A stretch of 64,000 nucleotides of DNA from an uncultured Planctomycetaceae bacterium (GTDB lineage Bacteria; Planctomycetota; Planctomycetia; Isosphaerales; Isosphaeraceae), in NCBI GenBank assembly GCA_963833985.1, contig CAWIAD010000002.1, positions 2,784,001 to 2,848,000 of the forward strand, given 5' to 3'. The notes under the pieces were generated by a model, which was not told where the DNA came from, did no database searches, and saw only the letters and a program-made list of their open reading frames with translations. Made by a program: the position numbers and the translations under genes. Below are positions 1,469-16,821 of this stretch, in pieces. Every line of letters starts with the position of its first letter. Position 1 is the first letter of the stretch.

Positions 1469-3919
1469 TCATTCCACCTCCCACTCGCTGATGCCGCCAG
1501 ACCAGCCGGGCCGGAGCTGCACTTTCAGGCGCAGAGCGGAAGTGGTGACGGGCGGGAAGGAGGTCTCGTTGAACTGGTCGGCACGCACGCCGTAGCCGGA
1601 GACGTTCTGGAGCGGAGTCCACGCGGCACCGTCCCGGTAGAGCAGACGCCACGATACGGGCAAGTCGCAGCCGCCCCGGGCCGGGCGGTCGGCGAACCAG
1701 TAGACGCGTGATCTGGAGAGCGTCGTGGGTGCCGGGAAGTCGTACTGCACCCACTCCGCCGTCCCCTTGCGATCCCACCAGCTCATCCGGGGCTTGCCCG
1801 TATCGCTGGAGCGCGCCGGGACAATGCCATCCTGGAGCGCGGCGAGTGAGTCTCCCGCGTAGCAATGGGAAGCGGAAACGGTGGCCAGTTGCGCCAGGGT
1901 GGTCTGTTCCGCATCCGCTTCGTTCTCGGGAACCCAGACACGCAGCTCGGAAGGGCCGCGGTTCAGGTAGGCGAAGTAGGGAATCGCATCGAGTGCCACA
2001 GGCCGCGCGGAGGGTTGACCTTTCTGGCGTGTCATCAAGCCGCTTTTGACCACGACGACTCCGCCCAGCCGATCGGCACGGTACGCCGATGAGAGCGGCG
2101 CATCGGGCGGCAAGAACAGGCTGCCGGCCGCATACCGGGCAGCGACCGGCTCGAAGGCGTACACCACCGGGCCGCGCTTCAGCGCAACGAGCCCCTTATC
2201 GGCCGGGACCCCTGGAGCCCGCACCCGGCGGACCGGCATCTCCATGATCACGTCCACAAGGTCTCCCGGCTTCCAGGTCCTGTGGATCCGGGCGTAGCCC
2301 TTGCGGACGACCGGCTGGAACTCCGTTCCATTCACCCTGAGCCGGAACGCCCCCTGCTCGGGCAGGCCTTCCACCTGGTAGAGAGCGTCGGCAGACGCTT
2401 TCCCCTGGCACCAGCCAGGCACGCGCACACACAGGTCGAAGGCTCTGTCGCCATCGGGCTCGACGGCGATCGACACCGAGCCGTCCCAGGGATATCGAGT
2501 CTTCTGCCGCAGCACGACGTTCCGGCCGCCAGCAGCCACCCTCGCCTGGCAGCCGATAAACAGGTTCACGTACACGGCGCCGGCGTCCTGAGCATAGATG
2601 TAACCCGGCAGCGCGCCGATGAGCTTCAAGAACATGGGCGGGCAGCAGGGGCAGTCGTGCCAGCTCCAGCGCGCCTGTCCGCGCCCGAAGGCGAGCGGGT
2701 TCACGTAGGAATAGGTGTTGCCCGCCTGCGACGTGTGCCCGAGCGCTCCGTTGTAGAGCACCGTTTCCAGCTCATCCACGAACCGGGCGTCCCCGAAGAC
2801 GCGGTTCATGTTCTGGCTGAAGAAGCCGCCGCCGATCGCCGCGCAGGTCTCCAGGTAGCCCGTGTTGGGTAAGTCGTAGTCCGGACCGAACGCCTCGCCC
2901 TCGCTGGTCGCCCCCACGCCGCCGGTGATGTACAGCTTGCGCCCGGCCATGTTCTCCCAGAGCCGGAGCGCCGCTTGCTGGTACTCAGGGCGGCCGTTCG
3001 CCGCCGCCAGCGCCGCGACGCCGGTGGCCATGAGCGTGGCGCGGACGGCGTGCCCCTCGATGGTGCGCTGGTCGAAGACGGGCTGGTGGTCCTGGTCGTA
3101 GGCCCCGAAGTCCTTGCGTCCTGCGTGATGCCCGCGCGCCTCGATGAAGAACTCGGCGAGCCGGAGATAACGCACCTCGTCGACGGGGAAACGCAGCCGG
3201 GCCTTGAGCGCGGGCTGCTCGCGAAACAGCTCATACATCCGCACCAGCGCTTCCTCCGCCAGCGCATGTCCCGGGACGACGTTCTGTCGGGGAGGCGGGC
3301 CGATGGTCTCGCACATGAGGTTCGCCATCCGGACCGCGGCCGCCAGCAGGTCGGTCTTGCCGGTGGCGCGGTAGAAGTGCACTCCGGCCTCGATCAGGCA
3401 GCCGGCGTTGTACACGTCGTGCTGCTGGACGTCGTTGCCGCCGTTCAGCCCCCACCGCTTCCCCGGCGCCACGAGCTGCGTCCAGGTATTGAGGTAGCCG
3501 TCCGGCTCCCTGGCCTGGGCCGCGACGATGCGTGCGATGTAGCCGTCCAGCCGTTTTTCGAGCGCAGGGTCGGGCCGCTGGGCCAGGAAGTCGGCCGCGC
3601 CGCGGATCATCTCGTAGATCAGCCCATCGTACCACTCCGGCCCGGCATGCCCCCCGCGCTTGCCGTCGCGCACCCGGTCAAAGTTGTGGATCGCCCCACC
3701 TCGGTCGTTCTCGAACTTGGTGAAGCAGTCGTTGATCGTGACCGTGCGCCAGACTTCCAGCCGGGGCGACCAGAAGGCGTCGTCGATGACCACCCGCGAG
3801 ATGGGAACCGGAGCCAGGGGGTGCGGGTCCGGCCGCGGCTCACTGGCATGGGCGAGAGTCGCCAGGCAAGCGACCAGAAGCAGTGGACCGGGTCTCGAGA
3901 CAAGTCTGAGCGTCTTCAT
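1469..3919 (-). CDS. Secreted glycoside hydrolase family 127 (beta-L-arabinofuranosidase-like) with C-terminal discoidin/F5-8-like domain
   Basis: GHAVRA, YLETCAAIG and CPCCPP motifs of GH127. Signal peptide after MKTLRLVS, so the start is placed at 3919 rather than 4048. C-terminal WVQYDF...LRL...ISEWEV. Confidence 0.85.
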   Translation of the reverse strand: MKTLRLVSRPGPLLLVACLATLAHASEPRPDPHPLAPVPISRVVIDDAFWSPRLEVWRTVTINDCFTKFENDRGGAIHNFDRVRDGKRGGHAGPEWYDGLIYEMIRGAADFLAQRPDPALEKRLDGYIARIVAAQAREPDGYLNTWTQLVAPGKRWGLNGGNDVQQHDVYNAGCLIEAGVHFYRATGKTDLLAAAVRMANLMCETIGPPPRQNVVPGHALAEEALVRMYELFREQPALKARLRFPVDEVRYLRLAEFFIEARGHHAGRKDFGAYDQDHQPVFDQRTIEGHAVRATLMATGVAALAAANGRPEYQQAALRLWENMAGRKLYITGGVGATSEGEAFGPDYDLPNTGYLETCAAIGGGFFSQNMNRVFGDARFVDELETVLYNGALGHTSQAGNTYSYVNPLAFGRGQARWSWHDCPCCPPMFLKLIGALPGYIYAQDAGAVYVNLFIGCQARVAAGGRNVVLRQKTRYPWDGSVSIAVEPDGDRAFDLCVRVPGWCQGKASADALYQVEGLPEQGAFRLRVNGTEFQPVVRKGYARIHRTWKPGDLVDVIMEMPVRRVRAPGVPADKGLVALKRGPVVYAFEPVAARYAAGSLFLPPDAPLSSAYRADRLGGVVVVKSGLMTRQKGQPSARPVALDAIPYFAYLNRGPSELRVWVPENEADAEQTTLAQLATVSASHCYAGDSLAALQDGIVPARSSDTGKPRMSWWDRKGTAEWVQYDFPAPTTLSRSRVYWFADRPARGGCDLPVSWRLLYRDGAAWTPLQNVSGYGVRADQFNETSFPPVTTSALRLKVQLRPGWSGGISEWEVE

Positions 3920-4140
3920 GGCGGCTCTTGAGGTCTTGCGGTCTTGCGGTACGAAGGCGGGGAGGAACGAAGGCACGGAGCGCGAGGTCGAAAGGCCGGC
4001 GACATCGCGCCTCGATCCATTCTGGCGCGCCGGCTGGCGGTTTTCCATTCACAGCGAGCGGTCTTCCTTCATTGTGCTCACATCGACGCCCTGGCTCCTC
4101 ATGGCCGGCCGCATCCCAGAAAGGCAATCGCTAAACAGAG

Positions 4141-4191
4141 AGGACAAGCAATGTAGCCCTTTTTTCGAGGGCAGGCTGCATTGCCTGTCCT
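4141..4191. repeat. 51-bp inverted repeat (MITE-like), arms AGGACAAGCAATGTAGCC / GGCTGCATTGCCTGTCCT
   Basis: Arms 4141-4158 and 4174-4191 are complementary at 16/18. Followed by TTACCTTTT x2 (4192-4209). Same motif as at 14587 and 16248. Confidence 0.85.
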
Positions 4192-4370
4192 TTACCTTTT
4201 TTACCTTTTCTAGAGGCAGCATGCTGGAACCGCCAAATGAGCACGGGTCAGCAAGTCTTCCCGCCCCCAACTGAGGAAGCTATTTCGTGATATGCCATCT
4301 CAGTTCAGGATGAGATAATAGCCCCGCTACGTTGGCATGATTGAGACCGATCGTTGTCAAGGACCGAGCA

Positions 4371-5516
4371 ATGGATGAGACGAAGAGCCTGTCTGAAAAT
4401 GAAGGCACGAAACCGCCCACTGAGGGGTCGAATGACTTTTCAGAAGGCGATGTCAAGAAGATCGGGCGTTACACGATCCTCGGGATCTTGGGCAAGGGCG
4501 GGTTCGGAAGGGTCTATTTTGCCCACGACGATGACCTCAACAGGGCGGTTGCGATCAAAGTTCCCCGCCCAGATCGAGTCTCGCAGCCCAAGGATATCGA
4601 CGCATACCTCAACGAAGCCCGCATCCTCGCCAGCCTCGACCACCCCCATATCGTGCCTGTTTATGACGTGGGACGTAACGACGATGGGCTATGTTTCGTT
4701 GTGTCCAAGCTCATCGAGGGAAGTGACCTTGCCAAGAGGATCAAGGAAAGCCGCCCCGGCTTTCACGAGTCTACGGCACTGGTGGCGACGGTCGCAGAAG
4801 CCCTGCATTACGCTCATACTCGTGGCTTGGTCCACCGGGATATCAAGCCCGCCAACATCCTGATTGATTCCTCGGGCAAGGCGTTCGTTGCCGATTTCGG
4901 ACTTGCCCTCAGAGACGAAGACTTCGGCAAGGGTGGAGGGATCGCCGGGACACCTGCCTACATGAGCCCGGAGCAGGCGTGCGGCGAGGGGCATCGTGTC
5001 GATGGTCGATCTGACATCTTCAGTTTGGGCGTTGTTTTCTACGAGTTGTTGACCGGGAGGCGGCCTTTCACAGCGAATGCTGAGGACAAGAGCGATGCTC
5101 TCGACGAACTCTTAGAACTCATCACCATGATCGAGCCTCGTCCACCCCGTCAGGTCGATGACACAATCCCGAAGGAACTCGAACGGATTTGCTTGAAAGC
5201 GATGACTAAGCGAGCGTCCGACCGGTACACAACCGGACGGGACATGGCTGAGGATCTTCGGGAGTTTCTCAAAACGGCAGGTGCTACGGTCACACTTCCT
5301 CTCCCTGCGGTTCCGGTCGCCATCTCACCGGCATCGACCCTCGAAGCCGCTCCACCCCCCACTACTTACAGGCAATCGGACTCCGACCAGCGACCGATCA
5401 ACATCGTCCCGAAGGGTCTGCGGTCGTTCGATGAGCATGATGCCGACTTTTTCCTGGAATTGCTTCCTGGTCCAAGGGACCGAGATGGTTTGCCCGACAG
5501 CATTCGATTCTGGAAG
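4371..5516 (+). pseudogene. Ser/Thr protein kinase, C-terminally truncated by an IS3 element
   Basis: [21 protein letters not shown] and YMSPE motifs. Homology-like sequence stops at ...DSIRFWK exactly where the IS left inverted repeat begins (5517). Confidence 0.85.
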
Positions 5517-5586
5517 TGTCTTGCTTCAGCCGGAAATGGAGAGACGTACCACCCGAGTTATACGACAACTCGGCAGGAGTCTCACC

Positions 5587-5895
5587 ATGCGAAAGCCCCG
5601 CAAGAACTATACGCCTGTCGAGAAGGTCGCCATCCTCCGGCGCCACCTCATCGATCGCGTCGCCGTTTCCGATCTCTGCGACGAGCACCAGCTGTCGCCC
5701 ACGTTGTTCTACCTCTGGCAGAAGCAGTTCTTCGAGGGGGGCACGGCGGCCTTCCAGCGCAAGAACGGACCCTCTGAGAGCCAGCACCTTCGCACCATCG
5801 CAGCCCTCCGCGACAAGCTCCAGCGCAAGAATGAAGTCGTCGCCGAGCTCATGGAGGAACACATCCAGCTAAAAAAAGAGCTTGGGGAGCTCTGA
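5587..5895 (+). CDS. IS3 transposase OrfA (HTH)
   Basis: [21 protein letters not shown]...LFYLWQKQF, followed by a coiled-coil. Ends over the A7G slippery motif at 5871-5878. Confidence 0.9.
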
Positions 5896-6860
5896 CCAAG
5901 GCATGGGTTCCCCACGATACCCGCGACGGCATCGTTGACTTCGTCAGGCGCTGGTCGCAGCGAACCGAGATCCCCGTCGCCAGGTTCATCACCTGGCTGG
6001 GGATCGCAGCCAGCAAGTTCCAGAACTGGAAGACTGGCTATGGACTGGCCAACGAGCACAATGCCTTGGTTCCACGCGACTGGTGGCTGGAGCCGTGGGA
6101 AAAGCGAGCCATCATCGAGTTCCACAAGGACCATCCCGTCGACGGCTACCGGCGACTGGCGTTCATGATGCTCGACGGCGATGTCGTCGCGGTCAGCCCT
6201 TCCAGCGTCTATCGCGTGCTCCGTGATGCGTGGTTGGTAAAGCATCATAACAGCAAACCTTCACTCAAAGGCAAAGGCTTCCAGCAGCCACTTTTGCCCC
6301 ACGAGCACTGGCACGTGGACATGTCGCACATCAACGTCGCCGGCACGTTCTACTCGCTTTGCAGCCTGCTCGACGGCTGCAGCCGGTTCATCGTCCACTG
6401 GGAGATCCGCGCGAGCATGACCGAGGCTGAAGTCGAGACGATCATCCAGCGCGCACGCGAGCGATACCCTGACGCCCGCCCGCGGATCATCTCTGACAAC
6501 GGGCCCCAGTTCATCGCCAGGGATTTCAAGGAGTTCATTCGGATTTGCGGTATGACACATGTGAGAACATCGCCATATTATCCGCAAAGCAACGGCAAGA
6601 TCGAGCGCTGGCACCGCTCGCTGAAATCCGAGTGCATCCGGCCCGGCGTGCCGCTGTCGCTGGAGGATGCCCGTCGTCTCGTGGAACGTTATGTTGATCA
6701 CTACAATCAAGTGCGTCTTCATTCTGCGATCGGTTACATCGCCCCGGCCGACAAGCTGGCCGGCCGTGGTCCAGCGATCTTCGCCGACCGCGACCGTAAG
6801 CTGGAGACTGCCCGTGAAAGGAGGGAACAGGTGCGTGCGACGACCCGAGCGACGGGTTGA
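5871..6860 (+). CDS. IS3 transposase OrfB (rve/DDE), expressed by -1 frameshift
   Basis: WHVD, ISDNGPQF and NGKIERWHRSLK DDE motifs. Frame is -1 relative to OrfA at AAAAAAAG. Confidence 0.9.
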   Translation, partial: KKRAWGALTKAWVPHDTRDGIVDFVRRWSQRTEIPVARFITWLGIAASKFQNWKTGYGLANEHNALVPRDWWLEPWEKRAIIEFHKDHPVDGYRRLAFMMLDGDVVAVSPSSVYRVLRDAWLVKHHNSKPSLKGKGFQQPLLPHEHWHVDMSHINVAGTFYSLCSLLDGCSRFIVHWEIRASMTEAEVETIIQRARERYPDARPRIISDNGPQFIARDFKEFIRICGMTHVRTSPYYPQSNGKIERWHRSLKSECIRPGVPLSLEDARRLVERYVDHYNQVRLHSAIGYIAPADKLAGRGPAIFADRDRKLETARERREQVRATTRATG

Positions 6861-7111
6861 TCACAGGGAGGCGATTGTCTCGTTCAGCTCGGTGCGGCTA
6901 CGATGAGAGATGGCCTGGGCGGAAGGTAGGGCAACGTGGCGACACGACCTGAGCGCCGACCCAGGGACCAAGACCGAAGGGGGCGGCACGATGCCGCCCT
7001 GTCTTCTCCTTCGGGATTGGTAAGAAAGCGGAAAACCGGTCCATCTGTGTGAGTGTTCACTCCACCTTATCTTTCGACCCCGGTTTCTCCATTTCACGCT
7101 GAACCATTACA

Positions 7112-7304
7112 CTTCGGGGGTAGTCGCACCTTTCAAATGAAGCACAAGAAGCGGAGAGAGTTGAAGGCCTCGGTTGAGCTCACTCATGGCAGTCTACTTA
7201 TCATGCGAGGCGGCACCCAGGCGAATTGGCTGCACCAGATTCCAAAGACGGCGAAGCCAGTTCCCGAGCGGCTCAATCTGACGTTCCGCCGGATTGTCAC
7301 GTAA
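7112..7304 (+). pseudogene. 3' remnant of AlkB-like 2OG-Fe(II) dioxygenase
   Basis: FGGSRTF...LTHGSLLIM...WLHQIPK...RLNLTFR is the AlkB C-terminal signature. The HxD-containing 5' part is missing and the remnant begins at the IS right end. Confidence 0.8.
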
Positions 7305-7317
7305 GCCCACTTCTCTC

Positions 7318-7647
7318 TCAGCTTAGCTCCGCCGCCACATCGGCGAATTCCACATTGTCATACTCATCAATCACTGCGACGGCCGACCCGGTGATGACCT
7401 CACCTGTTGGCCGGTTTGCTTCGTCCGTGCCTTCCATCACAAAGGTGAAGTCGGCCCTGATTGGGTCTCCGGTCTGAGAGTCTTTGACGGTGAACGACTT
7501 CATGAACCAGGAATATGTGTCGAGTGACTCTTGAAGCTTGCTTACCGGTTCCTCGTCAGCCACGTCGGTCCAACGGCTCTGAAGGAACACCGCAATCTGG
7601 TCTTGCCGTTCGTCTTCATCATCCGAGATGTAATCTTGAAGGGGCAT
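7318..7647 (-). CDS. Small acidic hypothetical protein
   Basis: ORF from MPLQDYISDDEDER, protein-like composition, no recognisable motif. Confidence 0.55.
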   Translation of the reverse strand: MPLQDYISDDEDERQDQIAVFLQSRWTDVADEEPVSKLQESLDTYSWFMKSFTVKDSQTGDPIRADFTFVMEGTDEANRPTGEVITGSAVAVIDEYDNVEFADVAAELS

Positions 7648-7921
7648 CAGTCGCTCTCTCGTTCGACGCCTCACAGCACCAACCCAGCCTCGACGCTAAA
7701 GAACGGGGGGTGCGGTAATATCGCTCACTTCATTATAGAACCGGCCTAGGCGACCCAGAAGACGGCAGGGTCTTTCGCCACGGGGAGGAAGGCTTTCCTT
7801 CCTGGGGGACCCACCTTCGTGCCAGACTTGGAAGAGATTTGGGAGTATCGAGTCATGGAAATCTCTTTGACCGCTGACGTCCGAAGGCCTTGTCTCGCAA
7901 GGCTGGTAGCGACAAGGGAAC

Positions 7922-8434
7922 TCAGAGGAGTTCTGAAAAACTGGCAAATGTGAGTGTAAACTTATGCTTCGTTTGCCATTCTACTTTTAGGCCGTCTGCT
8001 ACTTCAACGCTCAGGGCATTGGCTCTCAGGAGCGAGAGAATTAAGTCGACAGTGCCCAATACCTCAAGCGACGAGTCGAAACTCGCACATCGCTTGCGGG
8101 CAAGCCTATCATCTAAGGCGACGACATAGGACTGCACCGAGGCAAGAGCGATGGCAGCACACTCTCCCAACCCAAGCCGTCCGTCGGCTGTGAGGTGGGC
8201 AAAGGTTTCTAGCTCTTTGAGGCCCGTTACACTGACCTGCTCAAGTAGCTGCGCGTCGAGGGCTATATCAAGCCGGGCCAACTGGTCGGCATCGGTGACT
8301 TCCCCTCGCACGTGGTCTGTGACAAGGAATCTGTATTGCGGATGAGACGTGAGGAGGTCTACCCGGTCAACCGCGAGGAAGTTTATCAGAACCGATGCAT
8401 CGATAACGACTATTGAACGGCCATCCGTGGCCAT
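7922..8434 (-). CDS. PIN-domain protein (VapC/DUF3368-like)
   Basis: VVIDASVLINF, LGLGECAAIALA and ALDDRLAR acidic PIN motifs. Lies 12 bp downstream of the XRE-peptidase gene. Confidence 0.8.
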   Translation of the reverse strand: MATDGRSIVVIDASVLINFLAVDRVDLLTSHPQYRFLVTDHVRGEVTDADQLARLDIALDAQLLEQVSVTGLKELETFAHLTADGRLGLGECAAIALASVQSYVVALDDRLARKRCASFDSSLEVLGTVDLILSLLRANALSVEVADGLKVEWQTKHKFTLTFASFSELL

Positions 8435-8446
8435 GCTCCTGCTCCG

Positions 8447-9682
8447 TTAATCGTGGGGATCGTTCAAAGCAGCCTCGCCTAGGTCGAGTAAATCCTTGGC
8501 GGGAATGTCGAGCAACCGGCTCAGCTCCTTCAGCCGAGACTTCGTGATCTCTTCGCGCCTGTAAGCTTCGATGGCCAAGTGGGCGACCTGACTTACAAGC
8601 TCAGAGTCATTTCTCGGACTGCCATCTGCATGGAGAATGTCGATATACCTGCGCCCCGCATCGGCCTTCTCAATGAGCGCTTCGCGCTCCGGGAACGTGA
8701 CAATTCTCAGATCGCTTAGCCGATACACCGCGGCATGGTAGCTGACCCCAAAGTGGTGGGCGAGCGCAGCGACGTCCTGATACGTAATTTGCTGAGTGCC
8801 CGGTACGGTGCGAGCTTCGGTAACCACCTCCTCACAGGCAGTCTCATCGTAGCTCAGATAGAGGTGACGGCTAGGTCCCCCCTTCTCAAGCCGGTCTAGG
8901 AACCCCTCGATGCCCGCTACCGGCATTAAGAACCCGCTTGCGAAAGCATTTGCTCGTCTCTCAATGAGGTCTTTCGAGTTCTCGCTTGTACTCACGATTG
9001 CCGACACGTTCCTGTCGAGCAAGGCGTGCGCATACTCATGAGCGTAGGAGAACCGCTTCCTCGCCCTGGGATGGGAGAAATTCACCAGGATGAACATCCC
9101 AATCGACGAATCGCGAAGGAAGAGCCCGGACATTTCATCAGGGAGCTTCGTCCCAGACGCCCAAATCCCCTGACTAGAGATGAGGTCGGCCATGTCGGCG
9201 ATAGCCCCGTGACCGAGTCCAAGCCGTTTCCGCTCCTCGGCGGCAACGCGGAGGCCTTGCTCAATCGCGTCCGACGCTTTCGTGAGGGGCGGCAGCTCAT
9301 AACTCGGGACCCGCACCCGTCGCGAATACCCGAGGAGGTTTTCAAGCTTCACTCCCTCGCGGCAGATGCCGACGCATCGAGTGACTTCTTGCCTCACCTC
9401 TGGATTGTCGCGGTACCCGACGGGAAGACGGTGGAGAGCCAGAAGGGCGTCTTCCGCAGCCGGCGAAGCTTCCTCCTGGACGAAAAAGTCGGTGATGCGC
9501 CGACCGTAGAGTTCGGCCAGGCCGGCAAGTTCCAGGGTGGAAAGAGTTCGGTTTCCAGCCTCGATGTTAACCATCGCCGTGCGCTGGATCCCGAGGTTCT
9601 CTGCTGCCTGCCCTTGGCTGAGACCACAGTTGACGCGAGCCTCCTTGAGCCTCCTTCCTAAAGTCTGCTGATCTAATGGCAT
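8447..9682 (-). CDS. XRE-family HTH fused to ImmA/IrrE (Peptidase M78) metallopeptidase
   Basis: N-terminal LGRRLKEARVNCGLSQGQAAENLGIQRTAMVNIEAGNR HTH. RKRFSYAHEYAH (HExxH) and ERRANAFASGFLMP. Confidence 0.92.
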   Translation of the reverse strand: MPLDQQTLGRRLKEARVNCGLSQGQAAENLGIQRTAMVNIEAGNRTLSTLELAGLAELYGRRITDFFVQEEASPAAEDALLALHRLPVGYRDNPEVRQEVTRCVGICREGVKLENLLGYSRRVRVPSYELPPLTKASDAIEQGLRVAAEERKRLGLGHGAIADMADLISSQGIWASGTKLPDEMSGLFLRDSSIGMFILVNFSHPRARKRFSYAHEYAHALLDRNVSAIVSTSENSKDLIERRANAFASGFLMPVAGIEGFLDRLEKGGPSRHLYLSYDETACEEVVTEARTVPGTQQITYQDVAALAHHFGVSYHAAVYRLSDLRIVTFPEREALIEKADAGRRYIDILHADGSPRNDSELVSQVAHLAIEAYRREEITKSRLKELSRLLDIPAKDLLDLGEAALNDPHD

Positions 9683-9856
9683 AGCAGAATTCCTTTAACA
9701 GGGACTGACGATCGCTTGGGCTCCCAAGAAGCCTTGCCACAGCACGCGAAGTACGTAAATCGTTAAGAGCAAACGATTTTCTGATTGGATGGACCGACTC
9801 TCGGAGAGCCGGAGCCACCGTACCGGTGCCGGACAACCAGGTCAAGTTCTATCTCT

Positions 9857-9885
9857 AGTGTACAGCCAAAATACAAAAGAGTCAA
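9857..9885 (-). promoter_or_regulatory. Putative sigma70 promoter for the XRE-peptidase/PIN operon
   Basis: Minus strand TTGACT (9885-9880), 17-bp spacer, TACACT (9862-9857). Confidence 0.6.
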
Positions 9886-9893
9886 AGCCTTCC

Positions 9894-9921
9894 TTGACTG
9901 TCTGAATTTCGGACATACAAT
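9894..9921 (+). promoter_or_regulatory. Putative sigma70 promoter for the CBASS operon with overlapping palindromic operator
   Basis: TTGACT (9894-9899), 16-bp spacer, TACAAT (9916-9921). Imperfect palindrome TGTCTGAA-T-TTCGGACA (9899-9915) fills the spacer. Confidence 0.6.
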
Positions 9922-9985
9922 ATAGGCAGGAGGGCTGAGGGTCCAGCTCCGTAGAACATGGCCGAGTGAAGGGGGGTTCAAGGAA

Positions 9986-11140
9986 ATGGCGACGATGCCA
10001 AAGATGGTGACGGCCTCGATGAACGTGGCTCTTGATAGCTTGCTCGAGGAGTTGTGCGAGACGGTCCAACTGACTGAAACGCAGTTTAAGGAGGCTAGGG
10101 GCCACTATCATGCGGTCGGCGACTGGTTGGCCGACCCGAAGAACCCCTTTGCCATCTATAAACCAAGGATTCGCTCGCAGGGCTCAGCGAGGCTAAAGAC
10201 CACCGTAAAGCCGGTCAGGCAGAACGAACACGATATCGACCTCATCCTGTTTCTCGACCTACCTTACAGCAGCTTCTCTCAACCAAAGGCCGTCTTTGAC
10301 CTTGTCGAAGCGAGACTTTGCGAGAACGAGTTCTTCCGGAAGAACATGGAGCACTACAAGCGGTGCATCCGAATCACGTATGCATCTGAGTTCCATCTCG
10401 ACATCACCCCCGCCCGTCAGGACTGGACCCGTGGGGGAAACAACATGCTCGTCCCGGACCGGAAAATCCGGGAATGGAAAGAGTCGAATCCTATCGACTA
10501 CGCCGACTTCTGGTTCGACTCCCGCGCATTGATGAGCCGGACCACAAAGGCGGCACGTTACATCGAGTCGCTTCCGGAGCGGGAGTCGGCTCGGCAGAAG
10601 GCCCCGCTGCGCCGCGCTGTGCAGCTCATGAAGCGGCATCGGGACATTCGTTTCAAGGACGACCCGGATGCTCCACGGTCGATCGTCTTGACCACACTCG
10701 CCGGGCTCCATTACGGAGGCGAAGAGCTTGTCTCGGACGCTCTTCTTACCGTCCTAGACGGCATCGTCGACCAGATCGCATCGGAACCCAATGGCGTCAT
10801 TGAGGTGCCGAATCCGGTGAACCCGGCTGAGATGTTTTGTGAGGCCTGGGCGAAGAACCCTGAGGCGTACCAGAAGTTCGTCAACTACGTTCAAGACTTC
10901 CGAGCCAAGCTCGTTCAACTTCTCTCGACGAGAGGCCTTGAGAACATTGCCAAGGGGCTCAACGTGCTCTTTGGCGAACCGCTCACGAAGCAGGCCGTTG
11001 CGTCCTACACGCGCAAGTTCCAGCACGACCGCGATAGCGGCCGAGTCGAGTTCTCAAAGACGAACGTGGGCCTTTCAACGGCGGCCTCGGCCGTAGCCGC
11101 CACCCGCACTGTCCCGGGGAACACTTTCCATGGGGACTAG
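9986..11140 (+). CDS. CBASS cGAS/DncV-like nucleotidyltransferase (CD-NTase, SMODS)
   Basis: SQGSARLKTTVKP...HDIDL and HLDITPA catalytic motifs, SNPIDYADFW, VQLMKRHRD, VPNPVNPAE. C-terminus ...NTFHGD. Operonic with E2 and patatin. Confidence 0.92.
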   Translation: MATMPKMVTASMNVALDSLLEELCETVQLTETQFKEARGHYHAVGDWLADPKNPFAIYKPRIRSQGSARLKTTVKPVRQNEHDIDLILFLDLPYSSFSQPKAVFDLVEARLCENEFFRKNMEHYKRCIRITYASEFHLDITPARQDWTRGGNNMLVPDRKIREWKESNPIDYADFWFDSRALMSRTTKAARYIESLPERESARQKAPLRRAVQLMKRHRDIRFKDDPDAPRSIVLTTLAGLHYGGEELVSDALLTVLDGIVDQIASEPNGVIEVPNPVNPAEMFCEAWAKNPEAYQKFVNYVQDFRAKLVQLLSTRGLENIAKGLNVLFGEPLTKQAVASYTRKFQHDRDSGRVEFSKTNVGLSTAASAVAATRTVPGNTFHGD

Positions 11141-11609
11141 CCAGGTCTTGAGGATTCACACCCTCGGGATCCACGAGCAGGCCGCGTGGATGCGGCGAGA
11201 ACATCCGGGGTTCAAAACCCGGGTTGACGGCGGTCTGCTTGTGACTCGTGGCCTCGTGCAGCCGACCGAGCTTAACGACACCTACCAGGTCCGTGTTGAA
11301 TACCGAGCGTGGGACCCTCCGAGGGCCTGGGTTGAGGAGCCGAAGCTCAAGAGGCTAGAGACCGATGAGCGGATCCCGCACACCTACCTCGATGACGATG
11401 GTACTGAGCGGCCGTGCCTGTATTTGCCCCAGACCGGCGAGTGGTCCACTGAAAAGAAGCTCGCCCTGACAATCATCCCCTGGTTATCGGTCTGGCTCCT
11501 CTTCTACGAGACGTGGCGGGTGACGGGCGAATGGCTAGGTGGTGGGGTCCATCCGGCGCCGCAGGAGCCCATCGTCAGACGTCCCATAACATGGAGTCCC
11601 AATCGGTGA
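11130..11609 (+). CDS. CBASS-associated stand-alone prokaryotic E2-like (ubiquitin-conjugating fold) protein
   Basis: IPHTY...RPCLYLP...W...IIPWLSVWLLFYETWRVTGEWLGGGVHP pattern. Start overlaps the CD-NTase end. Confidence 0.8.
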   Translation: MGTSQVLRIHTLGIHEQAAWMRREHPGFKTRVDGGLLVTRGLVQPTELNDTYQVRVEYRAWDPPRAWVEEPKLKRLETDERIPHTYLDDDGTERPCLYLPQTGEWSTEKKLALTIIPWLSVWLLFYETWRVTGEWLGGGVHPAPQEPIVRRPITWSPNR

Positions 11610-12592
11610 GCCGATTCCGGATCTTGAGCCTTGATGGCGGGGGTATTAAAGGCACCTTCACGGCGTCTTTCCTCGCTGAACTGGAGAGCATGACCAAGAC
11701 ACCAATTCATAAATATTTTGACCTAATAACCGGTACCTCAACCGGCGGGATCATCGCCATTGCCCTCGGCTTGGGAATCCCGGCGTCCGAAATTCTCGAT
11801 TTCTACGTTAAGAAGGGCCCGGAGATTTTCCCCGCCATCGGCATCAAGAAGAAATCTCAGCACTTCCTCCGCTGGATGTTTCGGACCAAGTACGGCCAGA
11901 AATCCCTCTTAAACGCCATCGGCTCGGTGACCGGTAATCGCAAGCTCGGGGACTCGAAAGTGCGGCTTGTCATCCCCTCGTTTAACGCGGTAAACGGCAA
12001 CGTCCAGCTCTTCAAGACTTCGCACCACCCGAGGCTTCGTCGCGATTACCTTCGCCCGGCTGTCGAAGTTGCTCTCGCGACGTCTGCGGCCCCAACCTAC
12101 TTTCCGGCGTTCATCGGTGAGGATGGTCTGGCCTGCATCGACGGTGGTATCTGGTCCAACTGCCCTGCCGCAGTCGGCGTCATCGAAGCCATTTCAGTCC
12201 TTGGCCAGGATCTGAAAGACGTCCATGTTCTCAGTATCGGAACGACGGACGTGCCCTACCACGTCTCAGAGGCACGACGTCAAAAGGGAGGCGTGCTTCG
12301 CTGGGGCCTTTTTAGCAAAGACTTCATCGGACTCCTGATGCAGGCGCAGATGCGGGCCTCGATTGCACAGGCCAAGGTCATGTTGAACTATGACGAGGAG
12401 CCCCACAGGTTCCACCGCATCGACGAGGTGACCAACCCGTCACGCTTCAGCTTGGATAGCGTCTCCGGGATTCCCGACTTGAGGGCCCTGGGTGCCGAGA
12501 CCGCCCGACACCAGGCAAGCGTTGTCCAGCGCCTCTTTCTGGACAAGGAAGCCGACCCCTTTGTCCCTTGCCATTCCCTCCCCTGTCTCTAG
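11606..12592 (+). CDS. Patatin-like phospholipase, CBASS effector (CapV/CapE-like)
   Basis: LDGGGIKG, GTSTG nucleophile elbow, TSAAPTYF, IDGG. GTG start overlaps the E2 stop (GTGA). Alternative ATG at 11591. Confidence 0.9.
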   Translation: MSRFRILSLDGGGIKGTFTASFLAELESMTKTPIHKYFDLITGTSTGGIIAIALGLGIPASEILDFYVKKGPEIFPAIGIKKKSQHFLRWMFRTKYGQKSLLNAIGSVTGNRKLGDSKVRLVIPSFNAVNGNVQLFKTSHHPRLRRDYLRPAVEVALATSAAPTYFPAFIGEDGLACIDGGIWSNCPAAVGVIEAISVLGQDLKDVHVLSIGTTDVPYHVSEARRQKGGVLRWGLFSKDFIGLLMQAQMRASIAQAKVMLNYDEEPHRFHRIDEVTNPSRFSLDSVSGIPDLRALGAETARHQASVVQRLFLDKEADPFVPCHSLPCL

Positions 12593-12750
12593 GAAGGTCC
12601 CAGCGATCAAGGCAGCGTCATGGAAGCGGAAGCGAAGCTTCGGTGACATCCTTCGGCAGCTTCGCCTAGCCATCGGCGTGAACGATGCAGTCTCTTAGCG
12701 TACAACTTTTCCCGTTTCCAGGTCACTGTTCGTCCTAGCCGGGGACTATC

Positions 12751-13137
12751 ATGCCCAGCCGAAAGCCGCTAATTCCGCCAAGCTGGCAGCGTTACGACGT
12801 GAGTCACCTTGTGCAGGAACACATCAACTCGTGGCAGGCCTTTTGCCGCCAAAGGGATGTGCTTCAACAAGGCCCCCTCGGGCACTCCCCAGGCGAGATG
12901 CATCGGAAGAACCGAGAGCGTCCTCGCTTGGAAACCACAACTAAATTGCTCGACATCGCCCTGCGAGTGACCGGACCCGTGCGATTCAACGGCCGGCTCT
13001 ACAAGTCCTCGGAATCTACGTACATGGGCACCGAGCCAGCCGATGGCTCGGTGCAAGCTGCCGAAGGCTTGTTCGTCGAGATCCATTCACCAATTAACGG
13101 CCTAGGCCGACTCGCACCGGCAAAGCAACGCAGGTAA
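12751..13137 (+). CDS. Hypothetical protein
   Basis: 128-aa ORF with purine-rich RBS-like GGGGA upstream. No recognisable motif. Confidence 0.45.
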   Translation: MPSRKPLIPPSWQRYDVSHLVQEHINSWQAFCRQRDVLQQGPLGHSPGEMHRKNRERPRLETTTKLLDIALRVTGPVRFNGRLYKSSESTYMGTEPADGSVQAAEGLFVEIHSPINGLGRLAPAKQRR

Positions 13138-13183
13138 CCTGCCACGCCACCGACAGCGAGGCCTTAGGAGCCCTTATCCCCCA

Positions 13184-14035
13184 ATGCTTTCCGTACGTGT
13201 AATCACGTTCCCTGGACTAAGAGGTGCAGACTTTGCTTACAACTACGTTGGCACCGACGATGGAGTCGCGATTCATTTCTCAGTCGATATGGCCCAGGTC
13301 TTTGGCGAGCGTCAAGCGTTTAAGCTAGTTGAGGAACGGATCCAAAAGACTGAGCTTGACTGGGTTAGGCCCGGAGCCGACCGCTGGGTCATATACCTCG
13401 ATAGACTTAAACGACCAGGTACCCCCTTAGCTGAGCTAGATTGGCTTCAAGGCAAGGCGGAAGTTAGACCTGAGCTAGACGTAATAGTGAGCCCCCCAAA
13501 TCTCTCGGGCTTGATGGCATCTTGCCCGCCTCAAGGTCGAGTAATCCTTTTCATTCGACCGGAGAACGTCATGAGCAGCGTGGCCGGTATCCCACTCTTT
13601 TACAGCTATTCACATGCAAATGAGCGGTACAGGAAACAATTGGAAACCCACCTTAGCACCCTAAAGCGGGAAGGCCTTATATCAGAATGGCATGACCGCG
13701 CTATTACACCGGGCAGTGAATGGAACAAGGAGATCCGGAGGCAACTTGAAACCGCCCGCACCATCCTTCTCTTGGTCAGTGCCGACTTTATCCATTCCGA
13801 GTTCTGCTCGAGCGTTGAGCTAAAACGAGCCATGGAGCGCCATGAGTCCGGCGATGCCCGCGTCATTCCCATTATCGTAAAGCCCTGCGATTGGCACTCA
13901 GCCCCCTTTGGGAAGCTCCAGGCGCTGCCGAAGGATGGAAAGGCGATTACGACCTGGAAGAACAAGGACGGAGCTTACCTTGATATCGTAAACGGCATAC
14001 GCCGTGTCATTGAGGAGTTGAACGAGCACCCTTAG
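13184..14035 (+). CDS. TIR-domain protein (TIR at 13571-14035; N-terminal extension of unknown family)
   Basis: LFYSYSH...WHDRAITPGSEW...LLLVSADFIHSEFCSSVELKRA...VIPIIVKPCDW. GGAG at 13561 before ATG 13571 suggests a stand-alone TIR start is also possible. Confidence 0.85.
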   Translation: MLSVRVITFPGLRGADFAYNYVGTDDGVAIHFSVDMAQVFGERQAFKLVEERIQKTELDWVRPGADRWVIYLDRLKRPGTPLAELDWLQGKAEVRPELDVIVSPPNLSGLMASCPPQGRVILFIRPENVMSSVAGIPLFYSYSHANERYRKQLETHLSTLKREGLISEWHDRAITPGSEWNKEIRRQLETARTILLLVSADFIHSEFCSSVELKRAMERHESGDARVIPIIVKPCDWHSAPFGKLQALPKDGKAITTWKNKDGAYLDIVNGIRRVIEELNEHP

Positions 14036-14064
14036 ACGCCCCACCGCCGGATTCACGGCTCGAG

Positions 14065-14557
14065 GTGGCAGGGGCAGAACGAGACAAGAGCCAGAAGGCC
14101 AGCACCACGGCTGGGGCGTTGGAGGCGCGTCTGACGACCAATGTCTCTGACCAGATGCTTAAGACGGTGGGTTGTCCCAGCCTTTTACTTACTCTTGTCT
14201 GTCGCGGTACGAAACCCGCTCGCATTCGCGGAGCTGAGCTTAGACTCAAAGGCCCCCAGTTTGTGGCCTTTCTTAAGTCACTTGAGCATGCGTTCGGCAG
14301 CGACTTTGATTACAAGCCTGTCGGGAAGGAACCTCACTCGACCGGCGACTGTGCAGCGGTGTCCTTTCTACCAGCCTCCCGGCCAATTTCACCGAACGGG
14401 TTTATCGTCGAGCCGGATGACGTGTGCCATTTCATCCTACCCGCATTAGGGATCCCAGTTACTTTCGCCGAGAGCCCACCTGACGACCTGTCTGTCGCTG
14501 CTATTTTCTTCGACGAGAGCGAGGAGACAGTCCTTGAAGGCGAGAAGGTCTCTCTCC
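14065..14557 (+). pseudogene. Hypothetical protein, probably truncated at the RAYT-element junction
   Basis: Protein-like ORF runs without a stop into the AAGACGAAA x3 junction repeat (reads DEKDEKDEK). Confidence 0.4.
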
Positions 14558-14584
14558 AAGACGAAAAAGACGAAAAAGACGAAA
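14558..14584. repeat. 9-bp tandem repeat AAGACGAAA x3 abutting the left inverted repeat
   Basis: Exact copies at 14558, 14567 and 14576. Confidence 0.9.
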
Positions 14585-14660
14585 AAAGGACATGCATTGC
14601 AGTCTTCCGCTGGCCGGGCCGATCTGGTAGATTGCGTGGATCTTGCCAGGAGGGACGGCC

Positions 14661-15696
14661 ATGACGATCGCGCGCTGCGCATCTGGTTGATCCCAGTGTC
14701 ACCCGCTGGTATCACTGCATCACGCGGTGCGTGCGGCGGGCGTTTCTGCTGGGGGAGGGCGGGCTCGACCGCAAGGAATGGATCGAACGGCGAGTCCAGG
14801 AACTTGCGGAGATCTTCTCCGTGGCCGTGGGCGGGTTCGCCATCCTCGATAACCACCTGCACCTGCTGGTGCGGCTCGACCCGGATGTGGCGGCGGGGTG
14901 GTCGGATGAAGAGGTCGTGCGGCGCTGGGGGAGGCTGTTTCCGCCCCGCGACAGGGCGCGGCGGGCACTGCCGGTCTCGGACGGGTGGGTCCAGGAACGG
15001 CTGAAAGACGTGAAGTGGGTGGCGATGGCACGCCAGCGGCTGCAAGGCCTGAGCTGGTTCATGAAGTGCCTGAAGGAGCCGCTGTCGCGACTGGCCAACC
15101 GCGAGGAGAACACCCGCGGGGCGTTCTTCGAGGGGCGGTTCCAGAGCGTGGCGATCCTGGATGAGGAATCTCTGCTGGCGACGTGTGCTTATATCGATCT
15201 GAACCCGGTGGCGGCGGGGATCGCCCAGGTTCCGGAAGCCAGCCCGCACACGTCGATCAAGCAGCGAGTGGAGCACGTGCAGGAACAGGAGCGCGCGGAG
15301 GATCTGCAAGCCGCGAAGCAAGGCAGCGTGGCGGGGTCGAAAGCGGCGAGTGGGATGGAGGAGCAGCTCTGGCTCTGTCCGATCGAGGACCGCCGGGGGC
15401 TCGACTCGATGCGGGAAGGGATGCTCGAGGGGTTCTCGCTGGGGAACTACCTGCTGCTTGTGGACTACACCGGGCGGCTGTTTCGCGAAGGGAAGGCGAT
15501 GATCTCGGCGGAGCTGGCCGGGATATTGGAGCGGCTGGGGAGCAACTCGGAGAACTGGCAGGCGCGGCTGCTGAAGCTGGCCGGTGGCCGGCTGCTGGGC
15601 CGGTTCTTTGCGGCGAGCCGGGAACGGCTGCGGGATGTGGCCGGGCGGCTGGGCCGGCATCACCTGGCGAACCTGGGCGGGTGCCCGGCGCGGTGA
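14661..15696 (+). CDS. REP-associated tyrosine transposase (RAYT / Y1_Tnp), one-base frameshift near 14675
   Basis: MTIAR/AHLVDPSVTRWYHCITRCVRRAFL, HUH motif DNHLHLL, FFEGRF, and AYIDLNPVAAG (catalytic Tyr, NP). Confidence 0.88.
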
Positions 15697-15767
15697 AGCC
15701 GCGGCGAGATGCGCGGCGTGTTGGTCTCAGGTGCTGGTCGGCCTCACGGCCGAGGTTGGGGGCTGCA

Positions 15768-15917
15768 CCCGTCCGAACCACGCGCTCACGCACGTGGTCA
15801 CGCGTATCAGCCTGGCGGGATCGCCCAGCCGAGCCACATGATCACGTACATAGGTGCCGACCTGAGCGGAAGTGGAGGCCGCGCCCGTCCGACCCACGCG
15901 CTCACGCACGTGGTCAC
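15768..15917. repeat. Two 34-bp direct repeats with internal imperfect hairpin
   Basis: CCCGTCCGA(A/C)CCACGCGCTCACGCACGTGGTCAC at 15768-15801 and 15884-15917, one mismatch. CCACG...CGTGG stem. Confidence 0.85.
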
Positions 15918-16004
15918 TCACCCCGCGCCAGGCAGATGACGAGATCGCGTGGCGAGCCTTTCGCCGACTGTCATTACAGGTTCGTGGATGACCGCGAGAA
16001 CCAT

Positions 16005-16193
16005 CCGGCCACGGTTCCACGAATGGTGGGCCTCGCGGGGACGCTCGACCCACCCTACCGGGCGGCCAATCCCCGGGCCAGTTCGACGCGCTTCCGGCCA
16101 CGGTTCCAGGAAAGGTGGGCCTCGCGGGGACGCTCGACCCACCCTACCGGGCGGCCAATCCCCGTGCCAGTCCGACGCGCTTCCGGCCACGGC
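16005..16193 (-). repeat. 89-bp tandem repeat, each unit containing a GTAG-type REP
   Basis: Minus strand GTAG-GGTGGGTCGAGCGTCCCCGCGAGGCCCACC at 16025-16058 and 16114-16147 (identical): GTAG tetranucleotide followed by an imperfect palindrome. Confidence 0.85.
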
Positions 16194-16261
16194 AACGAGC
16201 ATGGGATTCGGTTGCTGAGCCGATCAAGGGACGCCCTGGGAGGGAGAGAGTCCAATGCCTG

Positions 16262-16319
16262 TCCTTTCTTCTCTCTTCTCCTTTCTTCTCTCTGTCCTTT
16301 CTTCTTCCTTTCTTCTCTC
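16262..16319. repeat. Pyrimidine-rich iterated repeat TCCTTTCTTC(TCTC) x4 at the right inverted repeat
   Basis: Copies start at 16262, 16279, 16295 and 16306. The unit overlaps the TCCT end of the inverted repeat. Confidence 0.85.
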
Positions 16320-16342
16320 GGCATGGCGGCCGCCAGGCAGCC

Positions 16343-16821
16343 TCATGTCTTCCTGGGCGTCTTTCGCTTCGACTCCGAGACCGAAGCCTCGCACCGCGCG
16401 ATATACTTCCGCGCGGGTACGCGCCGGATCGTGTCGCCGATCACCTCGAGTGCCAGGTCGTCCAACTTCTTGAAGCGGATGCACGACTTGCCCATGTCGA
16501 GTTTCTTGCCGGTCTGCGCCAGGCCTCCCGAAACGAGTTCGCCTGCTCGCTGTCGGCGTAGACGCACATCAGGTAAAGCGACATGTAATTCTTCTGCGAG
16601 GCAAGCGCCGCGAACGGCAAGGGTTGCTTCGGGTCGCAGTGGTAGCCCGCCGGGTGCACGCGGTGCGGCACATAATACCCGATCATGCCGTACTGGATGC
16701 CTTCTTCGTAGTCCTTGTCCAGGTTCCTGAGAATGACCTGGCGCACTCCCTGGAGCGCGCTGCGGCGATCCTCCGGCAGTGCGGCGAGATACTCTTCAAC
16801 GGTCGCGGGCTTCTCGGGCAT
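16343..16821 (-). CDS. DUF1801-family protein, frameshift near 16530
   Basis: MPEKPATVEEYLAALPEDRR...YEEGIQYGMIGYYVP...LASQKNYMSLY, continuing in another frame as GKKLDMGKSCIRFKKLDDL. Confidence 0.8.

Follow-up and report, generated by a model that had tools for sequence, protein, structure and literature searches.

Results

The locus and its inverted motif

The subject of this work is a 64,000-nucleotide stretch of DNA (the window) from an uncultured Planctomycetaceae bacterium of the family Isosphaeraceae, in which a defence island with a CBASS operon lies next to a gene for an HUH/Y1 transposase. Island and transposase gene are bordered by four copies of a short inverted motif, AGGACA[G/A/T]GCA[A/T]TG, and it is the relation between motif, enzyme and island that we address here. 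The genome of the window is referred to as G000 and its contigs as C1 and C2; other G numbers denote related genomes. The features defined by the motif are as follows (TIR, terminal inverted repeat; a stutter is a tandem repeat of the bases abutting the TIR).

4141(+), 4179-4191(-), 14587(+) and 16253-16265(-): motif cores 1 to 4, from a pattern scan of the window
4141..4191, no strand: 51-bp mini-element made of two inward-facing TIR copies, 4141-4158(+) and 4174-4191(-)
4192..4213, no strand: tandem stutter abutting copy 2 on its outer, cargo-facing side, a feature seen family-wide
14556..14604, + strand: stutter (GACGAAAAA three times) and copy 3 (left TIR of the Y1 element, 74 nt 5' of the ATG)
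14661..15696, + strand: HUH/Y1 transposase gene, assigned by its features to TnpA-Y1 subclass 2.3, with one extra base after codon 5
16248..16265, - strand: copy 4, right TIR of the Y1 element, 563 nt past the stop codon
16266..16319, no strand: tandem stutter abutting copy 4 on its outer side (family D4)

At no more than one mismatch these are the only four matches in the 64 kb, whereas shuffled versions of the window had 0.36 matches on average and none of 100 shuffles reached four. The four sites had been reported by the first-pass annotation, and the scan confirmed them; the proposed motif length of 18 bp was not upheld, the conserved core being about 13-15 nt. The layout described there was found as well. 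Copies 1 and 2 form an inward-facing pair, predicted by folding with DNA parameters to make a hairpin of 51 nt (-14 kcal/mol), copies 3 and 4 enclose the transposase gene as left and right TIR, and the DNA between copies 2 and 3 is less GC-rich (0.573) than that outside (0.664 and 0.651), with maximum-likelihood change points at 3860-4150 and 14570-14870, which span copy 1 and copy 3. Five comparable mini-elements (minis) of 48-55 bp occur at other sites in the genome, and the 51-bp mini is likely a non-autonomous derivative. The window-type layout is seen again in the same genome at C2:5023785-5034450 (mini, 7.7 kb, mini, 1.7 kb, Y1 gene) and at C2:3032840-3041082. The backbone on the two sides of the whole unit carries a near-direct 12-13-nt repeat, CATGGC[C]GGCCGC (window 4099-4111 and 16324-16335), possibly a chance occurrence in GC-rich DNA.

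Copies 1 and 4 also face inward and both of their flanks are intergenic, so one could read them as the outer ends of a composite transposon of 12.1 kb (mini, island and Y1 gene) that moved as a whole into the region between the DUF1801 and GH127 genes. A smaller inward-facing TIR pair of this kind surrounds a 1.5-kb toxin-antitoxin (TA) module at C2:3037727-3039231. We consider the composite explanation very improbable, since there is no second copy of the 12.1-kb unit and no clear target duplication, and the GC change at copy 3 parts the cargo from the Y1 unit. The 1.5-kb TA module was likewise dropped as a candidate mobile unit, as at nine homologous loci in relatives no TIR pair flanked it.

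The Y1 transposase

Two genes of the window, DUF1801 (16337-16821) and Y1 (at 14676), have single-base frameshifts. It is possible that the extra base in the Y1 gene is an indel error of the assembly, because the flanking DUF1801 gene is frameshifted too. The frame that follows the extra base encodes NHLH, YIDLNP 112 residues further on, and TS, all of them conserved among 37 homologues: N59, H60, H62, Y172, D174, L175 and N176 are almost invariant, and T192 and S193 are conserved. The protein is 344-350 amino acids long. A search of PDB sequences with it gave no match; its AlphaFold2 model (pLDDT 89) was closest in fold to 4ER8, the E. coli TnpA-REP (E 6e-5). The profile NF047646, considered for a classification as a REPtron, scored 37.5 bits, under its cut-off of 80. 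By the features described in PMC6006769 the protein appears to match TnpA-Y1 subclass 2.3.

The genome contains 13 full copies of the Y1 gene at 85-100% identity and many fragments, the paralogues being 85-93% identical to the copy in the window. A sigma-70 consensus was not found at the left end of the window element; TTGAC..TAG-like boxes are visible by eye in most of the paralogues.

The motif is the terminal inverted repeat of the Y1 element

In 12 of the 13 full genomic copies the motif stands 74 nt 5' of the ATG (89-90 nt if the spacing is measured to the P0001 start), and the thirteenth copy lacks its 5' end. Thirty-seven of the 56 genomic motif matches lie within 2 kb of a piece of the Y1 gene, a zone that makes up 1.4% of the genome. 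Among relatives with enough flanking sequence the motif was upstream of Y1 in 60 of 77, and an inverted motif with a pyrimidine-rich outer flank followed the gene in 22 of 66, compared with 3 of 151 control windows. The two-ended units of the relatives are compact (about 1.3-1.8 kb), with the right TIR in most cases about 180-430 nt past the Y1 stop; among the 13 full copies of the window genome only the one in the window has retained it. Copy 4 is missing in the nearest paralogue, which diverges at about window position 16190-16240. At the level of genomes, five or more motifs were present in 12 of 13 Y1-positive and in none of 34 Y1-negative members of the family, a comparison in which the 47 genomes are kin and not independent, and the locus sets overlap.

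The motif is thus the TIR of a multicopy element that is widespread in planctomycetes and that we assign to TnpA-Y1 subclass 2.3. The first-pass annotation had assigned it to this enzyme family and suggested a scan of the genome and of related planctomycetes for enrichment beside the Y1 subfamily; both the assignment and the expected enrichment are borne out by these counts. Its premise that Y1 enzymes normally have no terminal inverted repeats is contradicted by the TIRtrons, since Y1 genes between TIRs, and TIRs that are solo, dimeric or grouped, have been known since 2013, according to the text of PMC3733652. In these terms copies 3-4 are a TIRtron and copies 1-2 a TIR dimer. In most genomes the copies are scattered, not arrayed.

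The outer edge of the TIR is a breakpoint

In relatives 28 of 66 left ends and 23 of 49 right ends carry a stutter, against 1.8 and 0.8 expected from shuffles and 16 of 280 insertion sequence (IS) ends. The window genome has them at 30 of 38 ends, a fraction that is inflated, as these ends were partly chosen by their A-rich flanks. A cleavage rule for the stutters, with the cut between C and T, was tried by eye on a few junctions and was given up, as it fitted some and failed others.

Genes are cut at the same outer edge: a C5 methylase begins at profile position 74 of 324, a DDE_5 gene ends at 92 of 272, DDE_Tnp_1 begins at 156 of 200 and an S41 peptidase at 82 of 165. The Y1 gene itself was cut three times at the motif edge, and in one case about 165 codons are replaced by a 55-bp mini. 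In the window genome three duplicates with 98-100% identity end at the motif edge (C2:1453097, C2:3032744 and C2:5692252), one of them with an IS3 at its other end; a fourth duplicate (95%) stops 28 nt short of the motif. The idea that the motif edge is a rearrangement breakpoint is therefore supported by both the cut genes and the duplicates ending there. The related suggestion of enrichment at island edges stood only in part: the motif is at 5 of 106 edges of low-GC islands (0.47 expected), a property shared with IS ends (16 of 106, 3.3 expected) and tRNAs (5 of 106, 0.53 expected), and just 4 of 53 low-GC islands involve it.

Some further structures at TIR edges may be mentioned. A cluster of 50% GC at C2:3196034-3198613 adjoins another left end; in it a C5 methylase is cut at the motif, and two more genes look, by eye, like an endonuclease III and an adenine methylase. 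At L134 2543-8355 (G060:C1) and at G000:C2:3954754-3956428 there are stepwise restarts, in which a left end with 78, 114 or 154 Y1 codons is followed by a fresh left end and the whole gene. At L132 2004-5838 (G060:C2) five or six tandem units of 615 bp, about 98% identical and with one motif each, resemble a stutter of long period.

Breakpoints of this sort could arise passively. The element and its minis may make local hops into dispensable, A-rich DNA and delete adjacent sequence as IS elements do, in which case the CBASS island would have arrived by another route and been trimmed to the ends. The GC content on the outer side of 38 ends (0.619) is indeed below that at IS ends (0.632) and at random positions (0.647), several of the truncated neighbours are other IS elements, and the IS3-bounded duplicate, the island edges marked by IS and tRNAs and the low number of low-GC islands with the motif (4 of 53) fit a passive pile-up too. 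On the other hand, no clean insertion was seen among the minis with traceable flanks (four in the window genome, at least three in G060), and we regard this explanation as unlikely in view of the arrangement of the minis in relatives.

Arrays of mini-elements in relatives

The clearest arrays are in G060, where counts are lower bounds (40 of 77 candidates were scored). A 200-bp mini query had at least 47 matches there, at least 41 after merging. The 41 minis fall in 6 clusters, whereas random placement gave a mean of 37.6 and a minimum of 30, and all 35 neighbouring pairs share their orientation; such clustering and complete co-orientation speak against a passive pile-up. The largest array is 110 kb long, with a Y1 gene about 10 kb beyond it. 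Between the minis we found MazEF, PIN, AbiE, DUF433 and GNAT modules, pairs of extracytoplasmic function (ECF) sigma factor and kinase genes, a TIR-kinase, and orphans, in a list of 83 hand-picked proteins from which no rate can be derived. Shorter arrays are also present in G051, G057 and G072, and an array in G049 consists of about eight hairpins of 40 bp with small open reading frames (ORFs) and terminates in a Y1 stub.

Some of the cargo can be traced. A 2.55-kb ECF/kinase segment of G060, 99% identical to another locus, has TIR edges at both ends, which under passive trimming would require two independent events. A 7.6-kb cargo is homologous to motif-free paralogues up to 8 nt from the TIR on one side and 9 nt on the other, and a unit of cargo plus mini is 95% identical between two arrays. 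In a hand-made list of 54 ends of G060 duplicates, which excludes IS copies and mini-only matches, 6 were within 15 nt of a TIR edge, a zone of 2% of the sequence (p ~8e-4). In relatives, then, minis of the same direction alternate with accessory DNA, the motif punctuating such arrays, and some cargo is common to arrays.

These arrays raise the question whether we are dealing with a dedicated cassette system like the integrons, in which the mini hairpins would be attachment sites, the Y1 enzyme would insert, excise and reorder cassettes, and hosts would keep the arrays as reservoirs of TA and defence genes. Several observations point in this direction: arrays contain 2-17 co-oriented minis, some terminating at a Y1 gene or stub; there are snug units, such as MazEF between two minis (L128) and a RelE-like/HTH pair (L133); a 167-amino-acid ORF begins about 45 nt after one 40-bp hairpin and stops 8 nt before the next; many TA families are among the 83 hand-picked proteins; and the 95% identical cargo-plus-mini unit stands in two arrays. 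We still find a dedicated cassette system a good deal less probable than not, because many segments start or finish in broken genes, the cargo lies in both orientations and ranges from 0.4 to 26 kb, the copies are scattered in most genomes, and no bias towards defence or TA genes was seen beside 44 related Y1 genes (see below).

Two further observations concern the surroundings and the distribution of minis. At L128 3640-4100 (G060:C2) a CRISPR-like repeat array, whose first repeat looks truncated, begins about 20 nt past the outer edge of a mini. A metagenome scan for mini hairpins was set aside, as its 45 loci consisted for the most part of a single low-GC locus that recurred and of chance hairpins resembling terminators, with a Y1 gene at only one of the 45. 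Rfam had no match in five loci.

Cargo of the island

The cargo between copies 2 and 3 is a mosaic of the following features.

4341..5516, + strand: 5' part of a Ser/Thr kinase gene that is interrupted by IS3 (Pkinase, 2e-48)
5517..7112, + strand: IS3-family element bridging the kinase and AlkB fragments, ~99% identical to 4 other genomic copies
7113..7304, + strand: 2OG-Fe(II) (AlkB-like) C-terminal fragment, profile positions 129-194 of 194
7922..9682, - strand: PIN-like gene (PADLOC PDC-S70, PIN label given by eye) and helix-turn-helix (HTH) plus Peptidase_M78 regulator, RmrA/capP-like
9986..12592, + strand: CBASS operon with CD-NTase cyclase, E2 and patatin phospholipase (PADLOC 3e-92, 8e-41 and 2e-101)
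13184..14035, + strand: Toll/interleukin-1 receptor (TIR-domain) protein with a ThsB-like match
14065..14586, + strand: orphan ORF that reads through the stutter into copy 3

The CBASS operon, which we take to be of the 'type II short' kind, also has a CBASS_lipase (NCBIfam) match above the cut-off. Its closest cyclases in 401 genomes of the phylum are just 32-38% identical to the window CD-NTase, which fits a foreign origin of the island. The PIN-like gene and the regulator are divergent from the operon, and the regulator gives weak matches to capH and capP in one polypeptide. The orphan ORF, for which neither a homologue nor a Pfam match was found, is possibly truncated at copy 3. A longer paralogue of the kinase exists near C1:1517676, with homology that begins at window 4298, not at the motif.

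Alternative alleles and defence bias

Neither an empty nor an alternative allele of the locus turned up. GH127 and DUF1801 were not adjacent in any of 121 family genomes. In G060 they are 24 kb apart and in opposite orientation, with ordinary genes between them, and a GH127 orthologue (75%) in G010, considered as an empty allele, was rejected as it is not syntenic.

The first-pass annotation had further inferred that the motif marks a hotspot for foreign defence DNA. In the window genome 6 of 38 motif ends indeed had TA genes on their outer side at no more than 1.5 kb, compared with 9 of 280 IS ends and none of 38 inner sides; the TA families in this count were picked post hoc, after the neighbours had been seen. 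The enrichment failed to replicate: a hand count of TA and defence Pfam matches at 44 related Y1 loci found them upstream of the gene at 3 loci, downstream at 4 and far from it at 1 of 42, without asymmetry. We therefore rejected a defence-specific cargo bias.

Discussion

How the island and the arrays may have formed

Since in relatives the minis form same-direction arrays that alternate with accessory genes, the ends of the element likely serve as joints for the addition or shuffling of foreign DNA. The explanation that we prefer, and to which we give about an even chance, is an imprecise accretion, in which unrelated DNA is joined at the element ends and arrays are built up in this way. The Y1 protein, a predicted single-strand nuclease, would recognise the TIR on single-stranded or extruded DNA. 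The nick would fall a few bases outside the TIR and rejoining would be imprecise, to A/G-rich targets; A/G-rich linkers inherited at new junctions suggest that the nick site is variable. If the 3'-OH were then extended and transfer to the tyrosine-linked end followed, as in the model put forward for BIME amplification in the text of PMC3333891, stutters could be produced, while strand transfer to a distant target could produce adjacent deletions or copies of flanking DNA. If such rounds were repeated locally, each mini would come to join unrelated DNAs, and arrays would result. The CBASS island is likely one such segment between two outward-facing ends. In view of the broken genes and the mixed cargo, the process looks opportunistic rather than like a precise cassette system or one specific for defence.

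A number of observations weigh against accretion at the element ends. The Y1 gene of the window carries a frameshift in the assembly, no donor of the window cargo was found within the genome, and homology to the kinase paralogue begins only 85 nt inside the motif edge. Among 41 and 121 genomes there was neither a syntenic nor an empty allele of the GH127-DUF1801 site. In G060, 48 of the 54 duplicate ends are off the TIRs and the six at TIRs come from just three segments, the 99% copy of the 2.55-kb segment lies beside a decayed Y1 gene, so that copying may have gone either way, and the co-orientation in arrays may reflect a lagging-strand bias, for which the flat GC skew gives no strand signal. 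To these must be added the IS ends and tRNAs that mark island edges as the motif does.

Other repeats and other Y1 families

The Y1 element contains other repeats, one of which is listed here.

15734..15917, + strand: 68-bp REP-like double-hairpin repeat with partial copies, 3' of the Y1 gene

It has 125 genomic copies in 61 clusters, 33 of which are far from any Y1 gene or motif. In the window genome it follows the Y1 copies where relatives have the right TIR, and it was found in the fetched loci of only one related genome; possibly the Y1 enzyme has recently spread it as a REP family. An 89-bp tandem repeat is present in two copies inside the element (window 16004-16181), in more copies in the paralogue at C2:2549164-2549530, and as solo copies elsewhere in the genome.

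At G000:C2:3199950-3200030 a different motif (AACTGACACTGATTTTC) shows the same type of stutter, and TA genes lie no more than about 2 kb from other Y1 families too (C2:2427239, C2:3098937 and C2:6400663). It may be that TIRtrons in general have stutters and cargo joints. A palindromic family, GACAGGCA-TTCT-TGCCTGTC, with 27 copies in 14 clusters (e.g. C2:5714559-5714669 of G000), has a GGACAGGCA core, yet is not near the Y1 family of the window; it was left out of the motif counts.

Comparison with known systems

Y1 genes with TIRs were known; the outer-edge stutters, the cutting of genes, the boundaries of duplicated DNA and the arrays are apparently new. We found nothing in the literature on the ends of subclass 2.3, on stutters or on cargo arrays of Y1 genes and TIRs, with the reservation that subscription journals were barely covered and that the figures and supplements of PMC3733652 and PMC6006769 may hold the motif. 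The papers covered contain bench tests neither for TIRtrons nor for subclass 2.3. The analysis supplies this subclass with an end of 13-15 nt, a minimal substrate of 40-55 bp and a junction footprint, and thereby makes the role of the long Y1 proteins testable with oligonucleotides.

Among known elements the TIRtrons, with their transposase TIRYT (Di Nocera et al. 2013, PMC3733652), are closest in organisation. In both systems, as far as the text of that paper goes, a Y1 gene is flanked by terminal inverted repeats whose distance from it is roughly constant, and TIRs occur solo, as dimers and in groups. The consensus differs: AGGACA[GTC]GCA here, with mostly A at positions -2 and -1, does not fit GGGGWSAS, a sequence that according to the same text is common to some TIRtron TIRs only, others being unrelated. 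Stutters, truncated neighbours and cargo-bearing arrays, all found here, are matters on which the text of PMC3733652 is silent. None of the 26 TIRYT examples was placed in subclass 2.3 in the text of Quentin et al. 2018 (PMC6006769).

The likeness to subclass 2.3, as its text describes it, is in the protein: about 345 amino acids compared with a median of 325, an HUH-to-Y distance of 112 compared with a median of 110, the NHxH, Y(V/I)DLNP and TS motifs, a long C-terminal tail, and multiple copies of moderate intragenomic identity. That subclass is mainly from Chromatiales and Alteromonadales, and no REP-like or other end sequences are given for it in the text of PMC6006769, whereas the element described here is from a planctomycete and has a defined TIR, mini-elements and a 68-bp REP-like repeat.

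With E. coli TnpA-REP and its BIMEs the element shares the closest fold (PDB 4ER8). It differs in having no GTAG-footed REP, a multicopy gene and kilobases of cargo between the repeats. According to the text of PMC3333891, TnpA-REP cuts with loose specificity some way from the site that it recognises, and amplification is explained by a nick-extend-rejoin model; a similar behaviour could explain the tandem stutters. Classification as a REPtron does not agree with a multicopy gene and with the missing GTAG foot on motif and mini, nor does IS200/IS605 (TnpA of ~150 amino acids, Y---Q, near-identical copies) agree with a protein of ~345 amino acids, Y---NP and 85-93% identity.

At prochlorosin loci full and truncated Y1 genes are found among variable accessory genes and a diversifying role was proposed for them (bioRxiv 10.1101/2020.03.09.984088); in a later note on the same preprint the authors state that there is no strong evidence for or against causality. 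The interspersion of full and truncated Y1 genes with variable accessory genes is the likeness to our arrays. The prochlorosin system differs in its subclass (2.1), its single cargo family and the lack of detected inverted repeats.

In integrons and superintegrons, co-oriented hairpin-forming spacers alternate with TA-rich accessory genes near a recombinase gene. No IntI was recognised in the gene calls of the fetched arrays, for which no IntI family search was made. As a tentative generalisation, which we think possible but would not bet on, the subclass-2.3 Y1 TIRtrons could be a gene-accretion system analogous to integrons: an HUH enzyme would use mini hairpins as attachment sites, DNA of chromosomal and of foreign origin (TA, CBASS and kinase/sigma modules) would be captured and carried from one co-oriented array to another, in arrays as long as 110 kb, and a large part of the hypervariable accessory DNA of Isosphaeraceae would have arisen in this way. 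If it is true that the arrays grow by capture, they would represent a second bacterial route to gene arrays of the integron type, one driven by an HUH enzyme, and a single-strand recombinase that is small and has a short site could serve as a tool. The arrays described here resemble integrons in their co-oriented hairpin spacers and TA-rich accessory genes. Among the differences are an HUH/Y1 enzyme where integrons have the tyrosine recombinase IntI, the absence of attC boxes by eye, gaps of 0.4-26 kb, cargo lying in either orientation and, apart from a few snug units, imprecise junctions at which genes are broken.

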